Positions 7,224 through 16,621 of a stretch of 64,000 nt of DNA are shown one piece after another. This stretch comes from Candidatus Heimdallarchaeota archaeon (GTDB lineage: Archaea; Asgardarchaeota; Heimdallarchaeia; Heimdallarchaeales; Heimdallarchaeaceae). The translations under genes were made by a program, and so were the position numbers. Location: positions 1 to 64,000 of the forward strand of contig JAUVXV010000014.1 of NCBI GenBank assembly GCA_030603365.1, given 5' to 3'. Under the pieces are notes generated by a model. The model had not been told where the DNA came from and did no database searches. It worked only from the letters and a program-made list of their open reading frames with translations. How positions within the stretch are numbered: the first letter of the stretch is position 1; the number at the start of each line of letters is the position of its first letter.

Positions 7224-9599
7224 TCATACAAGAGGATTAGTGTCAAGAGGATAAGGGTCAACTACACTAGTTACTTCCCAATCTATTGGATAACTGCCAA
7301 CACCAGACCAAGTATCCCAATAATTGCCTTCTAAGGTCAAACTATCATACCATTGACTTCCTCCTTCTTTATCCAATGCTTGAGAAGTTCCTCCTTGATT
7401 ATTACCAATGAAAGCATTATGGTGAATTATATGATCCGTGGAATAAAGGGATATTTCAATAGCATAACCCACATTATTCAAGAAAAGATTATAGGTTACA
7501 TTACATTCTACTTGCACCGCTCCTGAGATTAACAATCCACGATTTGAGTTCTCTGAAAAAGTGTTATTGTGAATAGTAACAAAATCTGAATAAATTACTC
7601 TCATCCCATCTTCATTCTCATAACAAGTATTATTTTCAATAATACAATAATCGGAGAAAGAGATGTAAATTCCTACAGTATTCTGGTAACATATAGACTC
7701 TGATAAATAAGTTCCATCAGATCTATATACATATATTCCGATATTTGAAGCATCATGAACAGTTATATCTGTGAGAGTACAATTTTCAGAATTGAAAATT
7801 CCTATTCCATTATAACAGGAGCTGATAGTTACATTTGTAAGGTTAAGATGTTCAGAGAGATAAACTTCTATCGCTGCACTTGTATTTGAAATGACGATAT
7901 TTCTAATCAGAGCAGAGCTACAATTTATCAGAATTAATTGTCCAAAAGCTATATTGTCAAGAATAAGATCTTGTTGATTTACATAGTAACCTAAAGGTTT
8001 TGAGTTTACCGAGTTATTTGTAATTGTAAATGTGTTATAATCACCTATATTACCATAGAAATTGAATCCACAGAGATCTCCAGATATAGAATTATTTTGG
8101 AAAACAACATAATCTGACCTGCTCAATCTAGGACCATTTCCATAAACATAAGTGAAAATATTGTCATTAGCTGTGATTTTGTCTGAATCAGTAATAGTTA
8201 TTCCATATTCACAAGATTCAAAAGTATTAGTTAGAACTGAAGAGTTATAATTTCTGAATACTTCAACATGACCGTCAAAGAAATGGTTGTTAAAGATATA
8301 CGAGTTAGTACATTCTACTAAAGAAATCTCACTCTGCGTGAAAGTGTTTTCTGTAAATACCAAATTAGCAGCACCTGCACAATAAACATCAGTTTCTAAA
8401 AATGAATTATTCGCAAATGTAACAAAATCGGCATCATCAAGGTTGAAGTGCATGAAACTGTTGTCAGAGATAGTTACATTATTACACTCTTTCAAATTTA
8501 CTGATATCACATATTCATTATTTATGAATTCAATATCAGAGCAGAAAATCAAATCGATTTTGACATCTCCTAATGCTTCATTCAAATTATACAACCAGAT
8601 ATCAGAACAGTTCACAAACAGAATTTGTGTACCTAGACTAAGTGTGTGTGCAAGATTAATGTAATCAGCACTCACTGTAAAAATAAATAAACCATTTCCT
8701 GCAAGGTTTGAATGTACTTGGTAGGATGCATAATCCTCAATAGATACTTCTCTAATTTGATAATCAAAGAAGTTATTGTATTCCAATTTTGATTGAGGAG
8801 ATTGAACAGAAGAGAAATATCTTCCTTCATTGAACGTGATATTAATTCCTATAGAAAAGGTCAGCAAAATGTTAAATTCAATACCAGTATTATTTGAAAT
8901 AAGACTTCGATGAGAGTAAGTAAGGAGAAATGATACATTATCCATATGATTTTTTATTAATAGAGCATCTGAACAATAATCGAGAAGAATAGCACTGTTC
9001 TTCCCATCAAAAACATTTTCTGTTATATTGATATTTTTGGAACCTGAACCAATGATATGAAATAAGAAATTTTCATTGATATTGTAAAAATAATTATTGT
9101 ATATAATGGTCTCATCAGCAGAAGATAAAGATAAAGCATAATGACAGTACTCAAATTTATTTTGAATTATTTGGCTGGAATCTGTATTGGATAAATAGAT
9201 TCCCCAAAAATCACTTCTTATAGTATTATTGAAAATTGTTGCGCTTCCATTAGCAACGTTTTCTAAGCGTATTGAATTTCCATTCTCATGTGTAGATCTT
9301 AGGAGACAGTTTTGGATAACAAAATAATCAGTTGTACCAAAGATATAAATTGCATAAGTAGTAAAAGTTGTAATATTTAGATTGTTGATTAGATGCGGGT
9401 CTTGTTCTGTACCTGTACCTTCAAAATCATAATCTAGAAAATCCTCATTCTTCCATATCATTATTGGATCATGTTCAACCATTTCATCAGGAGGGGTAAT
9501 AATTGGATCATTTTGTAATAATAAAACAGGCACGATAATTGCTACTGTTATTAATAAGCCTACAAGAACACCGACAAGATATTTCCATATTACTTTCAT
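7224..9599 (-). CDS. Membrane-anchored NosD/right-handed parallel beta-helix repeat surface protein
   Basis: N-terminal TM, GTGTEQDPHLI start of the beta-helix, many Asn-rich repeats, C-terminal GNYW...DPYPL. Confidence 0.88.
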   Translation of the reverse strand: MKVIWKYLVGVLVGLLITVAIIVPVLLLQNDPIITPPDEMVEHDPIMIWKNEDFLDYDFEGTGTEQDPHLINNLNITTFTTYAIYIFGTTDYFVIQNCLLRSTHENGNSIRLENVANGSATIFNNTIRSDFWGIYLSNTDSSQIIQNKFEYCHYALSLSSADETIIYNNYFYNINENFLFHIIGSGSKNINITENVFDGKNSAILLDYCSDALLIKNHMDNVSFLLTYSHRSLISNNTGIEFNILLTFSIGINITFNEGRYFSSVQSPQSKLEYNNFFDYQIREVSIEDYASYQVHSNLAGNGLFIFTVSADYINLAHTLSLGTQILFVNCSDIWLYNLNEALGDVKIDLIFCSDIEFINNEYVISVNLKECNNVTISDNSFMHFNLDDADFVTFANNSFLETDVYCAGAANLVFTENTFTQSEISLVECTNSYIFNNHFFDGHVEVFRNYNSSVLTNTFESCEYGITITDSDKITANDNIFTYVYGNGPRLSRSDYVVFQNNSISGDLCGFNFYGNIGDYNTFTITNNSVNSKPLGYYVNQQDLILDNIAFGQLILINCSSALIRNIVISNTSAAIEVYLSEHLNLTNVTISSCYNGIGIFNSENCTLTDITVHDASNIGIYVYRSDGTYLSESICYQNTVGIYISFSDYCIIENNTCYENEDGMRVIYSDFVTIHNNTFSENSNRGLLISGAVQVECNVTYNLFLNNVGYAIEISLYSTDHIIHHNAFIGNNQGGTSQALDKEGGSQWYDSLTLEGNYWDTWSGVGSYPIDWEVTSVVDPYPLDTNPLV

Positions 9600-9630
9600 T
9601 TTTTCACTTATCCAATTTATTGTTTTGAAG

Positions 9631-9686
9631 ATATATGAGATATTTCATAAGCGAATTTCGAGATAATTTCATGACAATTCTGGAAC
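9631..9686 (-). promoter_or_regulatory. Promoter/operator of the NosD gene: 13-mer ATATCTCATATAT plus three phased 11-bp repeats
   Basis: Plus strand ATATATGAGATAT at 9631-9643, identical to 14568-14580. Repeats AATTTCGAGAT, AATTTCATGAC and AATTCTGGAAC at 9654, 9665 and 9676. Confidence 0.65.
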
Positions 9687-9689
9687 GTA

Positions 9690-10718
9690 TCATTCAATCA
9701 CTTTTTCACCTGATTTGCTTAAATACACAATTGCATTTCTCCCCCACTTCTCTTTTCTAATCAAACCTTGTTCTTCTAATAATAGAAGGTTTCTGGATGT
9801 TTTAGCTCTTGTGAAATCAGCTTTTCTTCCCAATTCATTTTGAGCAATTTTTCCTCCAGCTTCATTAATAATTCTTAGAAGTGTTTTTTGAGATTCATTT
9901 AGAAACAAGGTTCCTATATCCTTGATAGATTTATCTTCTTTTCTTCTCATTAGTAAATAAGTAATTACAAAACCAACTGATATACCTAACAATGGCCCAA
10001 CTACAAATGCCCAGATTGGGGGATTTGAAGGTTCAAGAGAAGGAGGGTCATAACGTACAATGAAGAGAGGATTGAATGATGGTAATAGATTCTGAAGTGA
10101 CCACGATATTATCAATCTCTTTCCTGCAAAGCTCTGTGTTTGATTAGTAGGATAAATTGATGTCAAACCCGCTTCTTCATGGATATAGCTGTTCTCTGGA
10201 AGTTTAACTAATAGATAAAGATTCTGAGTATAGTAATTTATCGTTGAAGAATACTCTAGATTGTAGTAATCTGATTCATCTTCGTAAATGGGCATCATAT
10301 CTAGATTATATGAGAGATAAAATGAAGTAGTGTCATTAGTGTCTAAAACTTGATTTAAGTTAAAGAACAGCTGAAGGTAAGAAGAAGTTTGAACAAGAAT
10401 ATCATAATCAATTGTTCCTGTACCATCTTCAACTGTTACGTTGCTGCAAGAGTGGTTTAACCAGAGAGTAAGAGAAGAGACAGAATAGTTCAACCTATTC
10501 TCAATATTATAAATCTCTGTAACATAGATTTCATCAACTTCAGGGATGTCAATTTGAGTTACATGAGATGTCAATACTATCATATCAGAAACTTGCATTT
10601 TTGGACAATACTCTGACCTTTCTAGAACAGTTGCACTACAGTTTGTGTTTGGAAACTGGGATAGCATAACCAATGTAAATACTAATCCTAAGAGAGGGAA
10701 TGTTCTTTTCTGCAACAT
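9690..10718 (-). CDS. Membrane-anchored transcription regulator: signal peptide, extracellular beta-rich domain, single TM, C-terminal winged HTH (COG2512-like)
   Basis: N-terminal hydrophobic signal, TM WAFVVGPLLGISVGFVITYLLMRRK, then LNESQKTLLRII..AGGKIAQNELGRKADFTRAKTSRNLLLLEEQGLIRKEKWGRNAIVYL. Confidence 0.88.
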   Translation of the reverse strand: MLQKRTFPLLGLVFTLVMLSQFPNTNCSATVLERSEYCPKMQVSDMIVLTSHVTQIDIPEVDEIYVTEIYNIENRLNYSVSSLTLWLNHSCSNVTVEDGTGTIDYDILVQTSSYLQLFFNLNQVLDTNDTTSFYLSYNLDMMPIYEDESDYYNLEYSSTINYYTQNLYLLVKLPENSYIHEEAGLTSIYPTNQTQSFAGKRLIISWSLQNLLPSFNPLFIVRYDPPSLEPSNPPIWAFVVGPLLGISVGFVITYLLMRRKEDKSIKDIGTLFLNESQKTLLRIINEAGGKIAQNELGRKADFTRAKTSRNLLLLEEQGLIRKEKWGRNAIVYLSKSGEKVIE

Positions 10719-10862
10719 CTGTATAATTCACATCATGGTTCAAAAGAATTTCTCTTGAAATTCAACATTTTCAACAAATAACACTTCATTATATTAAGAG
10801 TTAGTTGAAACTATAGTGTGACAATTTCGAGACTCAGAACAAAGAATTGAAATGAAATGATA

Positions 10863-10949
10863 TCAGAGAGGATTACTATTGAGAGGGTAAACATCAAAAA
10901 CAGCAGCTATACTATCAATAACATACAATCCAGATACCCATTCATTAAT
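10863..10949 (-). pseudogene. 3' remnant of a NosD-type surface protein gene
   Basis: Translates as INEWVSGLYVIDSIAAVFDVYPLNSNPL*, resembling the C-terminus of 7224-9599 (TWSGVGSYPIDWEVTSVVDPYPLDTNPLV*). Confidence 0.55.
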
Positions 10950-10988
10950 GATAATGTATAGAAATTAGAGGAATTGTTTAGAATTTCC

Positions 10989-12101
10989 TCACATTTTAAA
11001 CATTTTTTTATCCTTTCTCTTTCTTTGAATAGAGATTGTTATGATAAACAAGAAGATTAGAAATCCTGAAAGGTATGAAGCTTCTGTTGGGGTTTCTGTT
11101 GGAGTTTCTGTTGGGGTTTCAGTTGGAGTTATTATCTCGTTTAAATTGAATTCTATTGTATCTTCTACTGTAGTATATTCTAGATTTTCATCATACATCA
11201 AAACTGTAATTGTAAGTTTATCATCTGTAACTGAAACATTACAATAGTGATATTCTGCGAAGTATTTATCTCCTGCAATAGCATATTCAGTTGCAATAGG
11301 GGTATAAAGAGGAGCACCTGCTCCACCAGTGGTAATATGAACAATACCATTTCTTGTGGTTTTATAATAGTAATGATCATGTCCTGAAAAAACTAAATCC
11401 ACTCCATATTCTATTAGAATAGGTTCCAAAACAGCTCTTATCACTCTAGAATTTTGATTTCGAGATTCACTTCTTACTGAATAACTTGGTCGATGATACA
11501 TTGCTATTGTAAATGATTTGTTGTTATTCTCTAGATCATCAATAATCCAGTTTTGTTGTTCTGTTGTAATCTCATATTCATAATCATCCTCATGTGTCCA
11601 ATATTCATCGGTGTTAATTATAATGAAGTGAATTTGATTGAAATCAAAACTATAAAATCGTTCATTACCTGGCATTTCAACATTCGCCATGTATGTTGAA
11701 AAATCCATATCCAGAGGTCCATAAGTTCCATTTGGGAATTTATATGTATACATCTCATGGTTTCCTACAGCATAGTAGAACTGAATATCATTCTGGACAA
11801 GCAAATCTATATCTTCATAATATCTATTCCAATCATCTTGTTCTCCGCCATTATTTGCCATATCACCTGTATGAAGAATGAATTCAAGATTGGGATTACT
11901 TAACATAACATCTTCGAAAATAGATTTTCGGATATCATTTGTTATATTTTCATCCCAGTTTCGCGAATCTCCGAAAGCGATAAAATGCCAAGGATCGTAA
12001 GAATCATCTACTTCAATTTGCACTACATTACTGTGTGTATGTATTAAAGAAGAAACGAGAAAGATAATCAAAAATATCAGAGTGGTTAATTTTTTGTTCA
12101 T
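10989..12101 (-). CDS. Secreted metallophosphoesterase (purple acid phosphatase/calcineurin-like) with TPTE linker and C-terminal TM anchor
   Basis: FGDSR, HTGDM, GNHE, YHRPSY and FSGHDHYY motifs; signal peptide; C-terminal TM plus basic tail. Confidence 0.92.
   Translation of the reverse strand: MNKKLTTLIFLIIFLVSSLIHTHSNVVQIEVDDSYDPWHFIAFGDSRNWDENITNDIRKSIFEDVMLSNPNLEFILHTGDMANNGGEQDDWNRYYEDIDLLVQNDIQFYYAVGNHEMYTYKFPNGTYGPLDMDFSTYMANVEMPGNERFYSFDFNQIHFIIINTDEYWTHEDDYEYEITTEQQNWIIDDLENNNKSFTIAMYHRPSYSVRSESRNQNSRVIRAVLEPILIEYGVDLVFSGHDHYYYKTTRNGIVHITTGGAGAPLYTPIATEYAIAGDKYFAEYHYCNVSVTDDKLTITVLMYDENLEYTTVEDTIEFNLNEIITPTETPTETPTETPTEASYLSGFLIFLFIITISIQRKRKDKKMFKM
11082..11129. repeat. 4 x 12-bp coding tandem repeat (TPTE linker)
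   Basis: TTCTGTTGGGGT, TTCTGTTGGAGT, TTCTGTTGGGGT, TTCAGTTGGAGT. Confidence 0.95.
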
Positions 12102-12244
12102 TGATTTATTACCCAGGAGAGTTATTTCATTACTATTGTAAGAAGTACGATATTTAGAGTTTTACATAAGAATAAAATGAAATTAAGAGAAGCAATCCAG
12201 AATACTTTGGAAAAGGAAAATCAAAGAGATATCTAACATGATTT

Positions 12245-13384
12245 CTATTTCTTTTTAGGTTCTAATCGTTCGTAACCATATTTCTCTCTATATTCATCCC
12301 AGTGTTCATTTACTCTACGAATAACATCATCATTTGTATTGTGGGTATTTGGAACATGTTCTCTTTTTTGAGATTCTGCGTAAGCAATCATATCATTCTT
12401 ATACTCTTCCCAACCGTCAATTCTCAGGTCCTTGTATACTTGTTCCATCATTTTTGATGGATCTTTGATGAATTCTTCATACTTAATATGAAAAACATTT
12501 TCTTTAGGAATGAGATGCAAATCTCTGTTTTGGCATTCATAGAGATGCTTATAGTTCTTCAGAATGTCTTGCTTCATCTTTTCCTTATCCCATTTTTGTA
12601 AGGTGTAAAGAGCAAATACTTCATCAAAGAACTTTACTGTGCTAGAATAAACCTTGTAGGGATTTCTATAGGTATGAATGTATTTTGCATTAGGGAACAT
12701 TTTTACAAGGTCTTTAATTCGATAATTATGAGTTGGGTTTTTCAAGAAAAGTTGTTTTCCACCATGACCTAAAGTCAACATTTGAACCAAGTAATAATAT
12801 TTTTTTCTCCATTTGTTATGATGTTTAGGCATTCCTTCAAATGTTAGAAAATCTGAATAAAGATCGAAATTACGTGGAAAAATGAATCCTGTATAGTACC
12901 CATAAGGTGTGCAAGTTCCTATGCAGTATTCCTCTTCTGTTGGCTCATCAGCGCCCATGATAACATTGTCCATTGGTCTTACATCTGGTAAGGAACTTTC
13001 TATTATCCATCGTGTAAATTTGGGAAAACCTAGATAAAAGAGAGTTGCATATCCTTCAATATTTGAGACATAACCCTTTGATTTATCATAAGCCATGAGA
13101 GTCATAAGATATGTTGTACCTGTTCGATAATGACCAATGATGAAAATTGGGTCCTCTTTTATTTCGGTTTTCTTGATTTTTCTATGAAACCTAATTTTCT
13201 GGTAAAAGCGTAAAGGAGTTAGTACTGTCATTAGTCCAACAGCATACAAGAAACGTAAGAAGTATTTTAGATCTACAGCAAATTTGTTATCCCATAGAAC
13301 TTTTAGAAAAGTTGGTAATGAATAACCTGCAAGAAGTTCTTCTTTTACTATTAACCATGTCTTATCTTTACCCATTAATTTCAC
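12245..13384 (-). CDS. Sulfotransferase (Sulfotransfer_3 family, mycobacterial Stf-like)
   Basis: 5'-PSB motif PIFIIGHYRTGTTYL, RPMDNV, LKNPTH, 3'-PB motif YRNPYKVYSS, and YEEFIKDP. Confidence 0.9.
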   Translation of the reverse strand: MKLMGKDKTWLIVKEELLAGYSLPTFLKVLWDNKFAVDLKYFLRFLYAVGLMTVLTPLRFYQKIRFHRKIKKTEIKEDPIFIIGHYRTGTTYLMTLMAYDKSKGYVSNIEGYATLFYLGFPKFTRWIIESSLPDVRPMDNVIMGADEPTEEEYCIGTCTPYGYYTGFIFPRNFDLYSDFLTFEGMPKHHNKWRKKYYYLVQMLTLGHGGKQLFLKNPTHNYRIKDLVKMFPNAKYIHTYRNPYKVYSSTVKFFDEVFALYTLQKWDKEKMKQDILKNYKHLYECQNRDLHLIPKENVFHIKYEEFIKDPSKMMEQVYKDLRIDGWEEYKNDMIAYAESQKREHVPNTHNTNDDVIRRVNEHWDEYREKYGYERLEPKKK

Positions 13385-13477
13385 CCTTTAAGGCGTCTAG
13401 AAATCCAATTGACGAAAAAAGACTGAAGTTATTTATAATATTTTACTTGAAAAACAAAAAAATAAGAAAAAAAGAGA

Positions 13478-14536
13478 TTAAACTCTCTTTCTTTTAATAA
13501 CCAAAGCAGCTGCAGCTAGAACTGGGATTGCGAAAAGAGCAAACCAAGCAGCACTAACACCAGTTGCATCAGCTACACCTAAAACAGGATCATGTACTAG
13601 TTTTAGACCATCACCATAATTTGGATAAACTAGAAGTAAGTTGATATATTCCATGCCAAAAGCCATCCCTTGACCGAAGTCCATATCATATCCAAAACTT
13701 GCAGCAGTAGCTATAACATTAACAGTTTCTAGATAAGTATCCTCTTGATCAAAGATATCAGCTTGAGGAGCCCAAGCAAAATATGCAATTAGTCTGTCTT
13801 TGTCATCTGTAAAACCAACACCATCTCTAGTGTAGTTTTGTGTTCTATCTGCCATAAATTCTTCTGTATTATTGATTCTAATTGCATCTTCTGGTTGACT
13901 AACTTGGTCACCAGATTGAACTCTATGACGATATTGATTTTCATGAACTTTAACATTGAAAACTAATCCAGCAGCTTGTGGGGAGAAGTTCCAATTATTA
14001 ACAATGATATCAAATTTGATCTCCTTGAGACCTTTTGTAGCATATGTTACTGTGGTTTCATCATCAAGTTCTTGAGTAACAACTATATCTTCAAGATAAA
14101 TATGATAAACAAAGGAAATGGTTGCACCATTGTCTAGAACTGAAGATGTTTGTGTAGCTATAATTTCATTAGTGAAATTTTCACTTGTTACAGTCCAATC
14201 AATTGATGGAGAAGCTAAATTATAGATTTTTCCTCCTAGTAGTTCATCTCGACTATCTACTATTAGATCATCTCCAAAGATTTCAGCTATATGGTAGAAA
14301 CCTATGTGGAACATTGTAGCGTCTCTTCTACCAGGGTCATCATCTGTTAACCAGAAAATTATATCAGGTTTACCTTCATTAAGCTTCACTGTAATATAAG
14401 GAGTTTTTATGAAAACTGAACCTTCTCTTTTCTCAATACTTCCTTCAGCAGGAGGCATAGCAACTGCGTTTGAAATTGAAGAAAATACGAACAATGAGAT
14501 AAATCCAATCATCAGTATTTTGTGTGTTGTTTTCAT
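13478..14536 (-). CDS. Secreted/surface protein with C-terminal TM anchor
   Basis: Signal peptide, beta-rich body (IKFDIIVNNWNF, YPNYG..LVHDPVLGV), then TM and IKRKRV. Confidence 0.82.
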   Translation of the reverse strand: MKTTHKILMIGFISLFVFSSISNAVAMPPAEGSIEKREGSVFIKTPYITVKLNEGKPDIIFWLTDDDPGRRDATMFHIGFYHIAEIFGDDLIVDSRDELLGGKIYNLASPSIDWTVTSENFTNEIIATQTSSVLDNGATISFVYHIYLEDIVVTQELDDETTVTYATKGLKEIKFDIIVNNWNFSPQAAGLVFNVKVHENQYRHRVQSGDQVSQPEDAIRINNTEEFMADRTQNYTRDGVGFTDDKDRLIAYFAWAPQADIFDQEDTYLETVNVIATAASFGYDMDFGQGMAFGMEYINLLLVYPNYGDGLKLVHDPVLGVADATGVSAAWFALFAIPVLAAAALVIKRKRV

Positions 14537-14567
14537 TTTTAATACCTAACATACATTGAAAACGACA

Positions 14568-14623
14568 ATATATGAGATATCGGTTATGTCAGAGTTTCAC
14601 ACGGGTTTGCAACCGTTGGCAAC
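14568..14623 (-). promoter_or_regulatory. Promoter/operator of the 13478-14536 gene: 13-mer ATATCTCATATAT plus three phased 10-11-bp repeats
   Basis: Plus strand ATATATGAGATAT at 14568-14580. Repeats GAGTTTCACAC, GGGTTTGCAAC and CGTTGGCAAC at 14592, 14603 and 14614. Confidence 0.65.
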
Positions 14624-14624
14624 G

Positions 14625-15668
14625 TTATTCAATCACTGTTCTACCATCGTCAGTAAGATAAATAACATAGGTTCTTCCCCATTTTTCTCTCTTGATTAAA
14701 CCTCTTAGTTCTAATGGAACAAGATTTCTAGAAATTTTCGATTTACTGTAGCCTGTTATATCACATAACTCTTTTTGACTCACTTTGCCTCGATTATCAT
14801 AAATGATCTTGATGAGTGACTTTTGATTGTCAGTCAGAAGTGTCATGCCTATTTTCTTCATAGCTTTCTTTTCTCTATATCTTATTAACCACGATATTCC
14901 ACTTATACCTATGAAAACACCAACAAGGATACCTATTAGAAACAATGTTGATCCTTTTTCCCAGAAATTAAGAGGTTCTTCTGAAATAAGGGGTTCATCG
15001 AATCTGATTAAAAAGAATGGATTAGATGCAGATGCTTGGTTTTCAAGAATCCAAGTTGTTTTTATTCTATTTTTCTCCAAAACTTGAGTGGAATTGTTTG
15101 GATAGAGAGATGGTGTACTGTCTGCAAATTCATGCATAAAGCTCTTCTCAGGCAAATAAATAATCATCTTATACGTATTTGTATGATAAGAGATTGTAGA
15201 ATAGAATTCAAACGAATAATATATAGGATCTTCTCCTAAAGGAGTAAGAAAAGTGTTTAGTTCATATTTTACTGTGAAAGAAGCAGTATCGTTCTGTTCA
15301 AGCTCTGTTCTGAAATTCACTCTCACTGTATTACTGCTGTTTGATATAACAAACCAGTTGAAACTTAAGGCTCCTTCTCCATCTTCGACCAACAATGTAT
15401 TTAGAGAAGAATTAAACCATAAATCAATGTATGAGATATTTGCCGTATCAGTGTTCTCCACAACAAAGGATTCTTGAACTGATATTTGATTAGGTGTATA
15501 AATATCAATTGTAGTTACATGAGATCTAACATTTACAGATTCTTGATTGATGACAACATCATCACTTATAGTTGAATTTTTAGCTAATGTCATTGAAAAG
15601 GAAATTAACAACAATAGTGTAGAAATTACGATTATGGATGCTATTTTTTTAGTAGTAGTAGATCTCAA
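14625..15668 (-). CDS. Membrane-anchored wHTH transcription regulator, paralog of 9690-10718
   Basis: Same architecture, with shared SHVT.IDI, LPE.S..HE, S.YP.N, NP.F..R.D and LTDNQK...GKVSQKEL...KSKISRNL..LE..GLI..EKWGR. Both proteins end in VIE*. Confidence 0.88.
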   Translation of the reverse strand: MRSTTTKKIASIIVISTLLLLISFSMTLAKNSTISDDVVINQESVNVRSHVTTIDIYTPNQISVQESFVVENTDTANISYIDLWFNSSLNTLLVEDGEGALSFNWFVISNSSNTVRVNFRTELEQNDTASFTVKYELNTFLTPLGEDPIYYSFEFYSTISYHTNTYKMIIYLPEKSFMHEFADSTPSLYPNNSTQVLEKNRIKTTWILENQASASNPFFLIRFDEPLISEEPLNFWEKGSTLFLIGILVGVFIGISGISWLIRYREKKAMKKIGMTLLTDNQKSLIKIIYDNRGKVSQKELCDITGYSKSKISRNLVPLELRGLIKREKWGRTYVIYLTDDGRTVIE

Positions 15669-15754
15669 GTTAAACTTATGTGGGAAGCATCAGATAAAAA
15701 AATTTCCTTTTGATGCAAGGAATGAAAAAAGTGAAGTGGAATTGGATTTCACAT

Positions 15755-16621
15755 TCATAGAGTGTCTATAAACTCGATTATTTGTTTTGTAAAATCAGCT
15801 GCTCCTGGCAAGTGATGCATGTACAAGAAACTAGGTACTTGAATATAGGTACTAGTAGGTACTAAATCAACACAAATTTGTGTTTCATTATCTACATGAA
15901 GATCTTCATCAATAGCCCCAACCATCAGAGAAGGAGTCTTGATTTTTTTGAAATCCTCTGTTCCATCCCACCAAGTAACCCAACAAGTTTTCTTCCATCT
16001 CATAGCACTTGCAGTTCCTATATATTGTTTATATCGGTCTCTTTGAACTCCTTCCTTCACAACTGTACCTACCCAGATTTTTCCAACGAATTTAAGCAGT
16101 CCATTTATTACGAAACTAGGAATAAAATGAGTTATGAAGATCAATTTTGATGGAAGTTTAGGTGTTCTTACAGGACCGACCATTATTAGTGCTAGAGGGT
16201 CTATCCATTCTTCTGCTAGTGCTCTTGATGTATAGAGAGCTGAAGAGCTTGCACAAAAAATTATTGTCTTTTTGGGATCAAGTTTCAATCCTTCTAATGT
16301 TTCTTTAATATCTAATCCTGATCTATTCATGTTGCCTTTATGCTTCCATTTAACTTTAGAAGTTATCTTGTCTCTTGTTTCTAATACATACAAGTTGTAA
16401 TGTTCATAGAGACAATCCCACAGATCATTCCATGACATTGGAACTGAAGCATAACCTGGTATGAAAAGTATGTTGCAATTTTTAGGACGGTTTCCTTTTT
16501 TTGTGAAATATACAAGTAGTTCTGCTCCATCCGACATAGGAACATAAATTCTTTCTGCTTCATTATAGAAAAGAGCTTCTTGAGTATACTCTTCTTTTGG
16601 TTCTTTGTTCTTAGAATTCAT
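15755..16621 (-). CDS. Alpha/beta hydrolase fold protein (degenerate nucleophile elbow)
   Basis: MSDGAEL, ILFIPGY, KIKTPSLMVG..DEDLH; CASSSA where GxSxG is expected. Confidence 0.72.
   Translation of the reverse strand: MNSKNKEPKEEYTQEALFYNEAERIYVPMSDGAELLVYFTKKGNRPKNCNILFIPGYASVPMSWNDLWDCLYEHYNLYVLETRDKITSKVKWKHKGNMNRSGLDIKETLEGLKLDPKKTIIFCASSSALYTSRALAEEWIDPLALIMVGPVRTPKLPSKLIFITHFIPSFVINGLLKFVGKIWVGTVVKEGVQRDRYKQYIGTASAMRWKKTCWVTWWDGTEDFKKIKTPSLMVGAIDEDLHVDNETQICVDLVPTSTYIQVPSFLYMHHLPGAADFTKQIIEFIDTL

Follow-up and report, generated by a model that had tools for sequence, protein, structure and literature searches.

Two gene pairs in the window

The window is a stretch of 64,000 nucleotides from a Candidatus Heimdallarchaeota archaeon (contig JAUVXV010000014.1, positions 1 to 64,000, of the 3.65-Mb assembly GCA_030603365.1). 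It harbours two copies, both on the minus strand, of a module that consists of a gene for a membrane-anchored DNA-binding protein, here termed the regulator, and an adjoining gene for a surface protein, here termed the target. The gap between the two genes contains an array of direct repeats and a short box. Coordinates are window positions unless another contig or locus is named. The two modules, B and A, comprise the following features (lengths in amino acids, aa):

14625..15668, minus strand: regulator B, with a signal peptide, an Ost1/ribophorin-like ectodomain, one transmembrane (TM) helix and a C-terminal DUF7343 winged helix; 347 aa, TTG start
14583..14623, minus strand: operator-like array of module B, four direct repeats GTTGCCAAC, GTTGCAAAC, GTGTGAAAC and TGACATAAC, all ending in AAC
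14568..14580, minus strand: box of module B, ATATCTCATATAT, a candidate weak TATA element in phase with the array
13478..14536, minus strand: target B, secreted, with a C-terminal TM anchor and a candidate GLMP-like beta-supersandwich ectodomain; 352 aa, no Pfam match
9690..10718, minus strand: regulator A, a paralog of regulator B with the same layout; 342 aa
9644..9686, minus strand: operator-like array of module A with an 11-bp period; units GTTCCAGAATT, GTCATGAAATT and ATCTCGAAATT, then a degenerate fourth one
9631..9643, minus strand: box of module A, ATATCTCATATAT
7224..9599, minus strand: target A, an N-terminally anchored parallel beta-helix surface protein rich in N-x-S/T sequons; 791 aa

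The anatomy of the module and the comparative evidence argue strongly for a real, conserved and undescribed system, for which a mechanism of binding, activation and signal reception is proposed here.

Regulator proteins

Regulators A and B are predicted to be type-I membrane proteins in which a signal peptide is followed by a beta-sandwich ectodomain, a single TM helix, a short basic linker and a MarR-like winged helix. They are paralogs, as an earlier note on this DNA had held (39% identity, E 5e-68), and the sequon density of the regulators lies at the 94th percentile of the open reading frames (ORFs) of the genome. The AlphaFold2 (AF2) model of regulator B, built on 41 family members (pLDDT 86.5), starts with a hydrophobic N-terminal helix (residues 5-25), continues with an all-beta domain (45-224) and one long helix (239-276), and ends in the winged helix (280-347). 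The long helix is the predicted TM region and carries the hydrophobic stretch LFLIGILVGVFIGISGISWLI, followed by RYREKKAMKK. In the model, about 15 residues separate the TM helix from the winged helix, so the DNA-binding domain would be held near the membrane.

Pfam DUF7343 (PF24034; 40.4 bits for regulator A and 46.9 bits for regulator B, gathering cut-off 27.6) covers the last 65 residues of both proteins, as do weaker MarR-type matches. For MarR_2, regulator B scores 32.2 bits and regulator A 25.8 bits, which is under the cut-off of 27. The winged helix of the model superposes on MarR (3bpx) with a root-mean-square deviation of 0.9 Å over 70 residues at 33% identity, and a PDB profile search with the regulator family matched Lrs14/MarR chains at the C-terminus only. 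The match is confined to the winged-helix core of 50-60 residues, and the flanking dimerisation helices of the full MarR fold are missing from the AF2 model. Trans_reg_C (PF00486) did not match the regulators at E up to 0.1.

The extracellular domain of about 200 residues that the earlier note described corresponds to the all-beta domain of the model, but its likeness to ribophorin I/Ost1 had been missed. The ectodomain is ribophorin-I/Ost1-like: it has the fold of the membrane-proximal lumenal domain, and the TM helix comes directly after it. An hhalign comparison of the regulator family profile with the genome's own PF04597 protein gave a probability of 86.5% (E 4.6e-6), with an alignment that covers the second lumenal domain and the TM helix of this canonical homolog. 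One distant homolog of the regulators carries precomputed PF04597 together with PF24034. PF04597 itself matches neither regulator A nor regulator B at E up to 0.1; searches with the ectodomain sequence returned nothing from Pfam or NCBIfam, the PDB profile search matched the winged helix only, and the protein atlas yielded a sub-threshold ribophorin lead for the ectodomain (0.83) and no other.

The canonical ribophorin I/Ost1 homolog is a protein of 707 aa (PF04597, E 3e-17), distinct from the regulators and encoded elsewhere in the source genome (G000 C14:215908-216654; locus L108:1009-3132, minus strand). Its outer part comprises two domains; there is a single TM helix, and by eye the long, charged C-terminal tail resembles a coiled coil.

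Target proteins

The earlier note had called target A a NosD protein. Generic Pfam repeat matches to NosD (129 bits) and Beta_helix (125 bits) are indeed present, but NCBIfam NosD_copper_fam reaches only 68.6 bits against a cut-off of 300, and the NosD label is therefore best read as a generic parallel beta-helix match. Target A contains 21 sequons, which places it at the 98th percentile of the ORFs of the genome, and target B has an average sequon density. The beta-helix targets of the regulator clades other than B have a common HDPIxIWxDxDF motif near the N-terminus.

Conservation of the gene pair

The proposal that the regulator gene and the downstream surface-protein gene form a unit is borne out beyond the window. 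The source genome encodes four regulator paralogs (A-D), each followed by a secreted-protein gene after 86-90 nt. Sixty relatives were screened, with regulator matches in 29 of the 30 genomes of the same family and in all seven of a second family. At 78 loci extracted from Heimdall genomes, a secreted-protein gene nearly always follows the regulator, mostly after a gap of 78-100 nt. B-clade regulators precede orthologs of target B, with the candidate GLMP-like fold, and orthologs of target B are still found downstream in the second family, though the regulators there are just about 25% identical to regulator B. The other regulator clades precede parallel beta-helix ("NosD-like") proteins; in a quick tree, the regulators linked to these form one group nested among the B-type regulators. 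The adjacency of regulator and target has been kept through many duplications.

As a protein family, the regulator is broad in Asgard archaea. A phylum-wide profile search found full-length matches in 115 of the 251 sampled genomes, unevenly spread: one large family had a match in 55 of 59 genomes and another in none of 54. Among the lineages examined, the combination of surface-protein gene and phased repeats occurs in the two Heimdall families only. In distant lineages, the gene downstream often codes for a cytoplasmic protein that resembles B12-binding ones by eye; its promoter is an ordinary GAAAGGCTTTATATC one, and arrays are absent.

Some further arrangements were encountered. At four loci of family f6 (L086, L087, L088 and L091), two regulator paralogs stand in tandem; the candidate GLMP-like gene separates them, and the second is followed by an alpha/beta-hydrolase-like gene. 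At five loci of a distant Asgard family (f10; L123, L126, L127, L129 and L130), a conserved protein of 133 aa (SSSKKIRVLVAKPGLDGHDRGAK) is encoded 60-78 nt after the regulator homolog; by eye, it resembles a B12-binding subunit of the methylmalonyl-CoA-mutase type, and its promoter is of the canonical GAAAGGCTTTATATC kind. The source genome also encodes a fifth DUF7343 membrane protein, of 443 aa and with a longer ectodomain, which belongs to a different, more distant family (G000 C16:162564-162722; locus L113:1447-2778, minus strand). The gene about 157 nt downstream of it encodes a cytoplasmic protein that is phosphotriesterase-like by eye.

Repeats and box in the gaps

The identical 13-mer ATATCTCATATAT noticed previously is present in the gaps of both modules (9643-9631 and 14580-14568) and ends 31 nt from the target ATG in each case (ATG at 9599 and 14536). 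Upstream of it lie phased repeats that differ between the loci, again as had been described (9686-9654 in module A and 14623-14583 in module B). The three 11-mers of module A are spaced by 11 and 11 bp and the four units of module B by 10, 11 and 11 bp, the first of these lying 1 nt past the regulator stop codon. In both modules, the box is in phase with the preceding repeats. The remainder of the gaps was also rightly said to differ, since outside the box, with the gaps aligned at the ATG, identity is at chance level (29%, 22/75).

The phasing recurs throughout the family. In 38 non-redundant gaps from related loci, of which the part upstream of the box was compared with dinucleotide shuffles, autocorrelation peaks at a lag of 11 (z = 12); lag 10 reaches z = 5.8 and lags 21/22 a z of about 5, and intermediate lags are depleted. 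Against 159 co-directional control gaps taken from the source genome, the lag-11 signal is again higher (Mann-Whitney p = 1.4e-6). The words CGTTGC (155-fold) and GTTGCA (30-fold) are enriched in the gaps, as are GTTTCA and CTCATA, and all of them are strand-specific. Each array comprises 2-5 direct repeats that begin right past the stop codon of the regulator.

The earlier note would have been refuted had repeats and box not been conserved downstream of homologs; in the Heimdall relatives, both are conserved. In the B clade, gap identity across ten species is 81%, compared with 68-80% for the regulators at the protein level, and the single large indel in the gap alignment measures exactly 11 nt, that is, one repeat unit. 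Among A orthologs, the GTC/ATCTCGAAATT units are conserved. A family profile anchored at the target start codon has CC at -47/-46, TTY at -40 to -38, an A/T-rich segment to -30 and GGTG at -9 to -6.

A genome scan for the 13-mer, which the earlier note had suggested, returned two exact copies, both at modules A and B. Orthologs carry a degenerate AYATYTCATAWAY consensus instead, with TYTCATAWA about 40 nt before the target start; judged from these alignments, the conserved unit is the degenerate box and not the exact 13-mer. The distance of the box from the start codon can be set against the genome-wide positions of TATA-like hexamers, which show a broad, weak enrichment between -54 and -34.

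Two other candidates were rejected. The exact 13-mer is not a genome-wide motif, given its two exact copies and 21 one-mismatch sites, which do not clearly exceed the 12 of the reversed control. RNA structure in the gaps was likewise discarded, as the gaps fold no better than shuffled sequence (z -0.8 for A and -1.8 for B) and the hairpin of gap B is not kept in orthologs. One of the one-mismatch copies of the 13-mer, ATATCTCATACAT, lies within the coding region of regulator B (15427-15439, minus strand) and is probably there by chance.

Elsewhere in the source genome, two TTGTTGCAA units 11 bp apart are followed by TTTCATATT (G000 C6:19188-19230, plus strand). This site is located in the divergent gap before a 94-aa Cys-rich ORF, beside a gene for a 450-aa secreted protein. 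It could be a trans target of a GTTGCA-type regulator.

Recognition helix and repeat type

The candidate repeats fall into two types that go with two forms of the recognition helix. With the motif classes defined after inspection of the data, regulators with an SK-T-SRNL helix, including paralogs A, C and D, are associated with GTCTC, CTCCC or ATCTCGAAA (STCYC-type) repeats in 8 of 9 loci, and those with SK-I/V-SRNL, including regulator B, with GTTGCA or GTTTCA (GTTKCA-type) repeats in 22 of 29 loci. At the level of these alignments, the putative operator type differs by clade and tracks one residue of the recognition helix. The box, by contrast, is common to both helix classes, so a general promoter element is the more likely reading, and a specific regulator site the less likely one.

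Putative promoters and probable read-through

Three further features lie upstream of the regulator genes:

15693..15711, minus strand: putative B recognition element (BRE)/TATA of regulator B, AAAAGGAAATTTTTTTATC, ending 24 nt before the TTG start; no Shine-Dalgarno motif
10789..10833, minus strand: second array, upstream of regulator A, three GTC-type units GTCTCGAAATT GTCACACTATA GTTTCAACTAA with 11-bp spacing, then CTCTTAATATAA
10739..10759, minus strand: imperfect palindrome TTCAAGAGAAATTCTTTTGAA before regulator A, overlapping the family-wide GGAAATTCTTTT element; candidate promoter or leader element

Most regulators of the family are preceded by a conserved RRGGAAATTCTTTTTWA element that ends about 24 nt before the start codon, and they lack a Shine-Dalgarno motif, which together suggests a leaderless regulator mRNA. 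The RRGGAAATTCTTTTTWA/AAAAGGAAATTTTTTTATC element is a putative promoter. The imperfect palindrome, of the form TTCAAGRGAAAYTCTTTTGAA, recurs at the corresponding place in A and D orthologs, 20-45 nt ahead of the start of the regulator, and several clades conserve it.

Oligo-T runs are the termination signal of archaea. In the first 40 nt past the regulator stop codon, they occur in 2 of 38 family gaps and in 83 of 159 control gaps (p = 2.6e-8). This near-absence of terminators implies that the target is probably also transcribed by read-through from the regulator promoter, which fits the conserved Shine-Dalgarno motif (GGTG at -9 to -6).

The second array upstream of regulator A points to possible autoregulation. 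By eye, cognate arrays are also present upstream of the A and D orthologs and of three GTTGC-type clades, and the autocorrelation upstream of the regulators is weak.

Proposed mechanism

Each module is read here as a transmembrane one-component regulator that acts on the adjacent target promoter, with a probability of about 0.65. Such a reading would entail DNA binding, activation, a signal, action from the membrane and an internal transcription start. The outer domain of the regulator would trace back to ribophorin I/Ost1, namely to its membrane-proximal lumenal domain. Inside the cell, several copies of the winged helix would bind the 2-5 direct repeats head-to-tail; the 11-bp recurrence places all sites on one face of the DNA, which a protein tethered to the membrane would require. 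Directly next to the array, about 40 nt before the target start, stands a TATA-like box that is weak and departs from the consensus. Archaeal activators such as Ptr2 and EarA usually sit upstream of the core promoter. Since the repeats occupy this position, the regulator is proposed to recruit the TATA-binding protein (TBP) and transcription factor B (TFB). This recruitment would raise transcription of the surface-protein gene over the basal level provided by read-through. Each paralog clade would use its own repeat type, with the box in common. The signal would most likely be a protein or glycan state at the cell surface and not a small molecule.

Several points weigh against this reading. 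Distant Asgard homologs adjoin unrelated cytoplasmic genes with ordinary promoters and without arrays, which makes the cis arrangement lineage-specific. The T-type loci fall into a single clade in the quick tree, so the correlation between helix and repeat type amounts to one evolutionary switch, and the post hoc definition of the motif classes counts here as well. With terminators missing and the Shine-Dalgarno motif conserved, plain co-transcription could explain target expression without an internal promoter. The box, 31 nt before the ATG, implies a leader of only about 7-9 nt, and an mRNA begun about 24 nt past the box would barely contain the Shine-Dalgarno motif. Lastly, cognate arrays upstream of the regulator genes find only weak support in formal tests (p from 0.04 to 0.5). 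Family-wide comparisons of each gap with the upstream region of its own regulator gave p = 0.49 for 7-mers in common, p = 0.2-0.26 for the longest common substring, p = 0.29 for phased exact 5-mers and p = 0.037 for rare 7-mers; autoregulation is therefore likely for some clades only.

In one alternative, the winged helix would occupy the repeats to repress or autoregulate a single bicistronic operon, with the array as a roadblock or attenuator of read-through and the box as no promoter. MarR-family proteins are mostly repressors, which speaks for this alternative, as do the lack of terminators, the conserved Shine-Dalgarno motif and the arrays upstream of several regulator genes. It is nevertheless unlikely. 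The box is AT-rich, stands at a fixed distance from the start and is common to the specificity classes, as expected of a core promoter element, and the repeats lie upstream of the box and not over it, which is the geometry of archaeal activators.

Alternatively, the regulators may be specialised ribophorin/Ost1 paralogs that serve as substrate-specific partners of the oligosaccharyltransferase (OST; AglB/Stt3) for the adjoining glycoprotein, with the gene pair as a simple operon. The winged helix would then stand in for Ost1's ribosome-binding four-helix bundle, with RNA, the ribosome or another protein as its partner in place of the repeats. The Ost1-like ectodomain, the ribosome-binding cytoplasmic domain of canonical Asgard OST1 (PMC11417166), the high sequon density of target A (98th percentile) and of the regulators (94th percentile) and the missing terminator between regulator and target genes all agree with this view. 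It is rather improbable, however, since it leaves unexplained the strand-specific, 11-bp phased and clade-specific repeats, which are under purifying selection with unit-sized indels. In addition, the C-terminal domain is a DNA-binding winged helix of the MarR/Lrs14 type with a conserved recognition helix and wing, and the sequon density of target B is merely average.

It is very improbable that a soluble factor binds the repeats and the box, or that these reflect a structured RNA element, and that the adjacent winged helix serves unrelated targets. In favour is a GTTGCA-GTTGCA-TTTCATATT site of similar make that lies away from any regulator gene. Against it, the gaps fold no better than shuffles and direct repeats form no pairs; moreover, a change of repeat type goes along with one in the recognition helix of the adjacent regulator, and the adjacency has persisted through many duplications.

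The reading of the module as a transmembrane regulator of the target promoter may be extended to the nature of the signal. Heimdallarchaeia would have recruited a duplicated ribophorin I, a subunit of the OST, as a set of receptors through which a particular surface protein's state of secretion, folding or N-glycosylation is reported and fed back to the adjacent gene. This extension is doubtful. Members of such a receptor family would possibly bind the surface protein itself or the AglB/OST machinery and exert their feedback from the membrane.

Neighbouring genes

Two genes lie between the modules (10989-13384, minus strand). The product of one is a secreted metallophosphoesterase that contains a PTETPTE linker and is anchored by a C-terminal TM segment; the other encodes a cytoplasmic sulfotransferase. 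Directly upstream of regulator B, positions 15755-16621 encode a protein of 288 aa that appears hydrolase-like by eye and has no Pfam match.

Comparison with known systems

A literature search found no paper on the regulator family, on DUF7343, on an Ost1-like sensor on a regulator or on GLMP in Asgard archaea, with papers on ribophorin, Asgard archaea and helix-turn-helix proteins judged by title or abstract. Asgard gene regulation is almost unstudied, and the module offers a complete candidate circuit of sensor, DNA-binding domain, paralog-specific operators and identified target. The 11-bp phasing beside the regulator's own gene would, moreover, give a simple physical picture of how a membrane-fixed protein reaches DNA.

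ArnR and ArnR1 of Sulfolobus acidocaldarius are archaeal examples of transmembrane transcription regulators (TTRs); in ArnR, the helix-turn-helix is N-terminal and the TM helices are C-terminal. The regulators likewise combine a TM region and a DNA-binding domain, both predicted, in one polypeptide. TTRs, which are presumed to work on DNA from the membrane, are a recognised class (Demey et al. 2023) that is widespread in archaea, with about four per genome (PMC10269533). The survey that defined them (PMC10269533) is a domain census, in which the present regulator family, its ectodomain and its operators are not described.

Compared with MarR and Lrs14, the C-terminal 65-70 residues of the regulators superpose on MarR. 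In contrast to MarR, the regulators are devoid of the N- and C-terminal dimerisation helices, their domain hangs on a TM helix, and their candidate sites are tandem direct repeats instead of a single palindrome.

With ribophorin I/Ost1, the regulators share the type-I topology and the membrane-proximal lumenal fold directly before the TM helix. They differ in lacking the first lumenal domain, so that a single ectodomain (45-224) is left, and in carrying a winged helix in place of the cytoplasmic four-helix bundle by which Asgard OST1 binds ribosomes (PMC11417166). The regulators may thus represent a second use, outside the glycosylation complex, of a eukaryote-signature domain in the archaeal lineage closest to eukaryotes.

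The nearest parallels in design come from bacteria. Like the regulators, ToxR, CadC and TcpP are single-pass membrane proteins whose winged helix lies inside the cell and whose sensor domain faces outward. These proteins of Gammaproteobacteria bind direct repeats upstream of a promoter and activate it, often at genes for surface or secreted proteins. They are of type II with an N-terminal OmpR-type winged helix (PF00486), whereas the regulators are of type I with a C-terminal MarR-like one (DUF7343), and the sensor folds are unrelated. By analogy of architecture and putative operators, ToxR and CadC are best regarded as the closest functional analogues of the Heimdall regulators.

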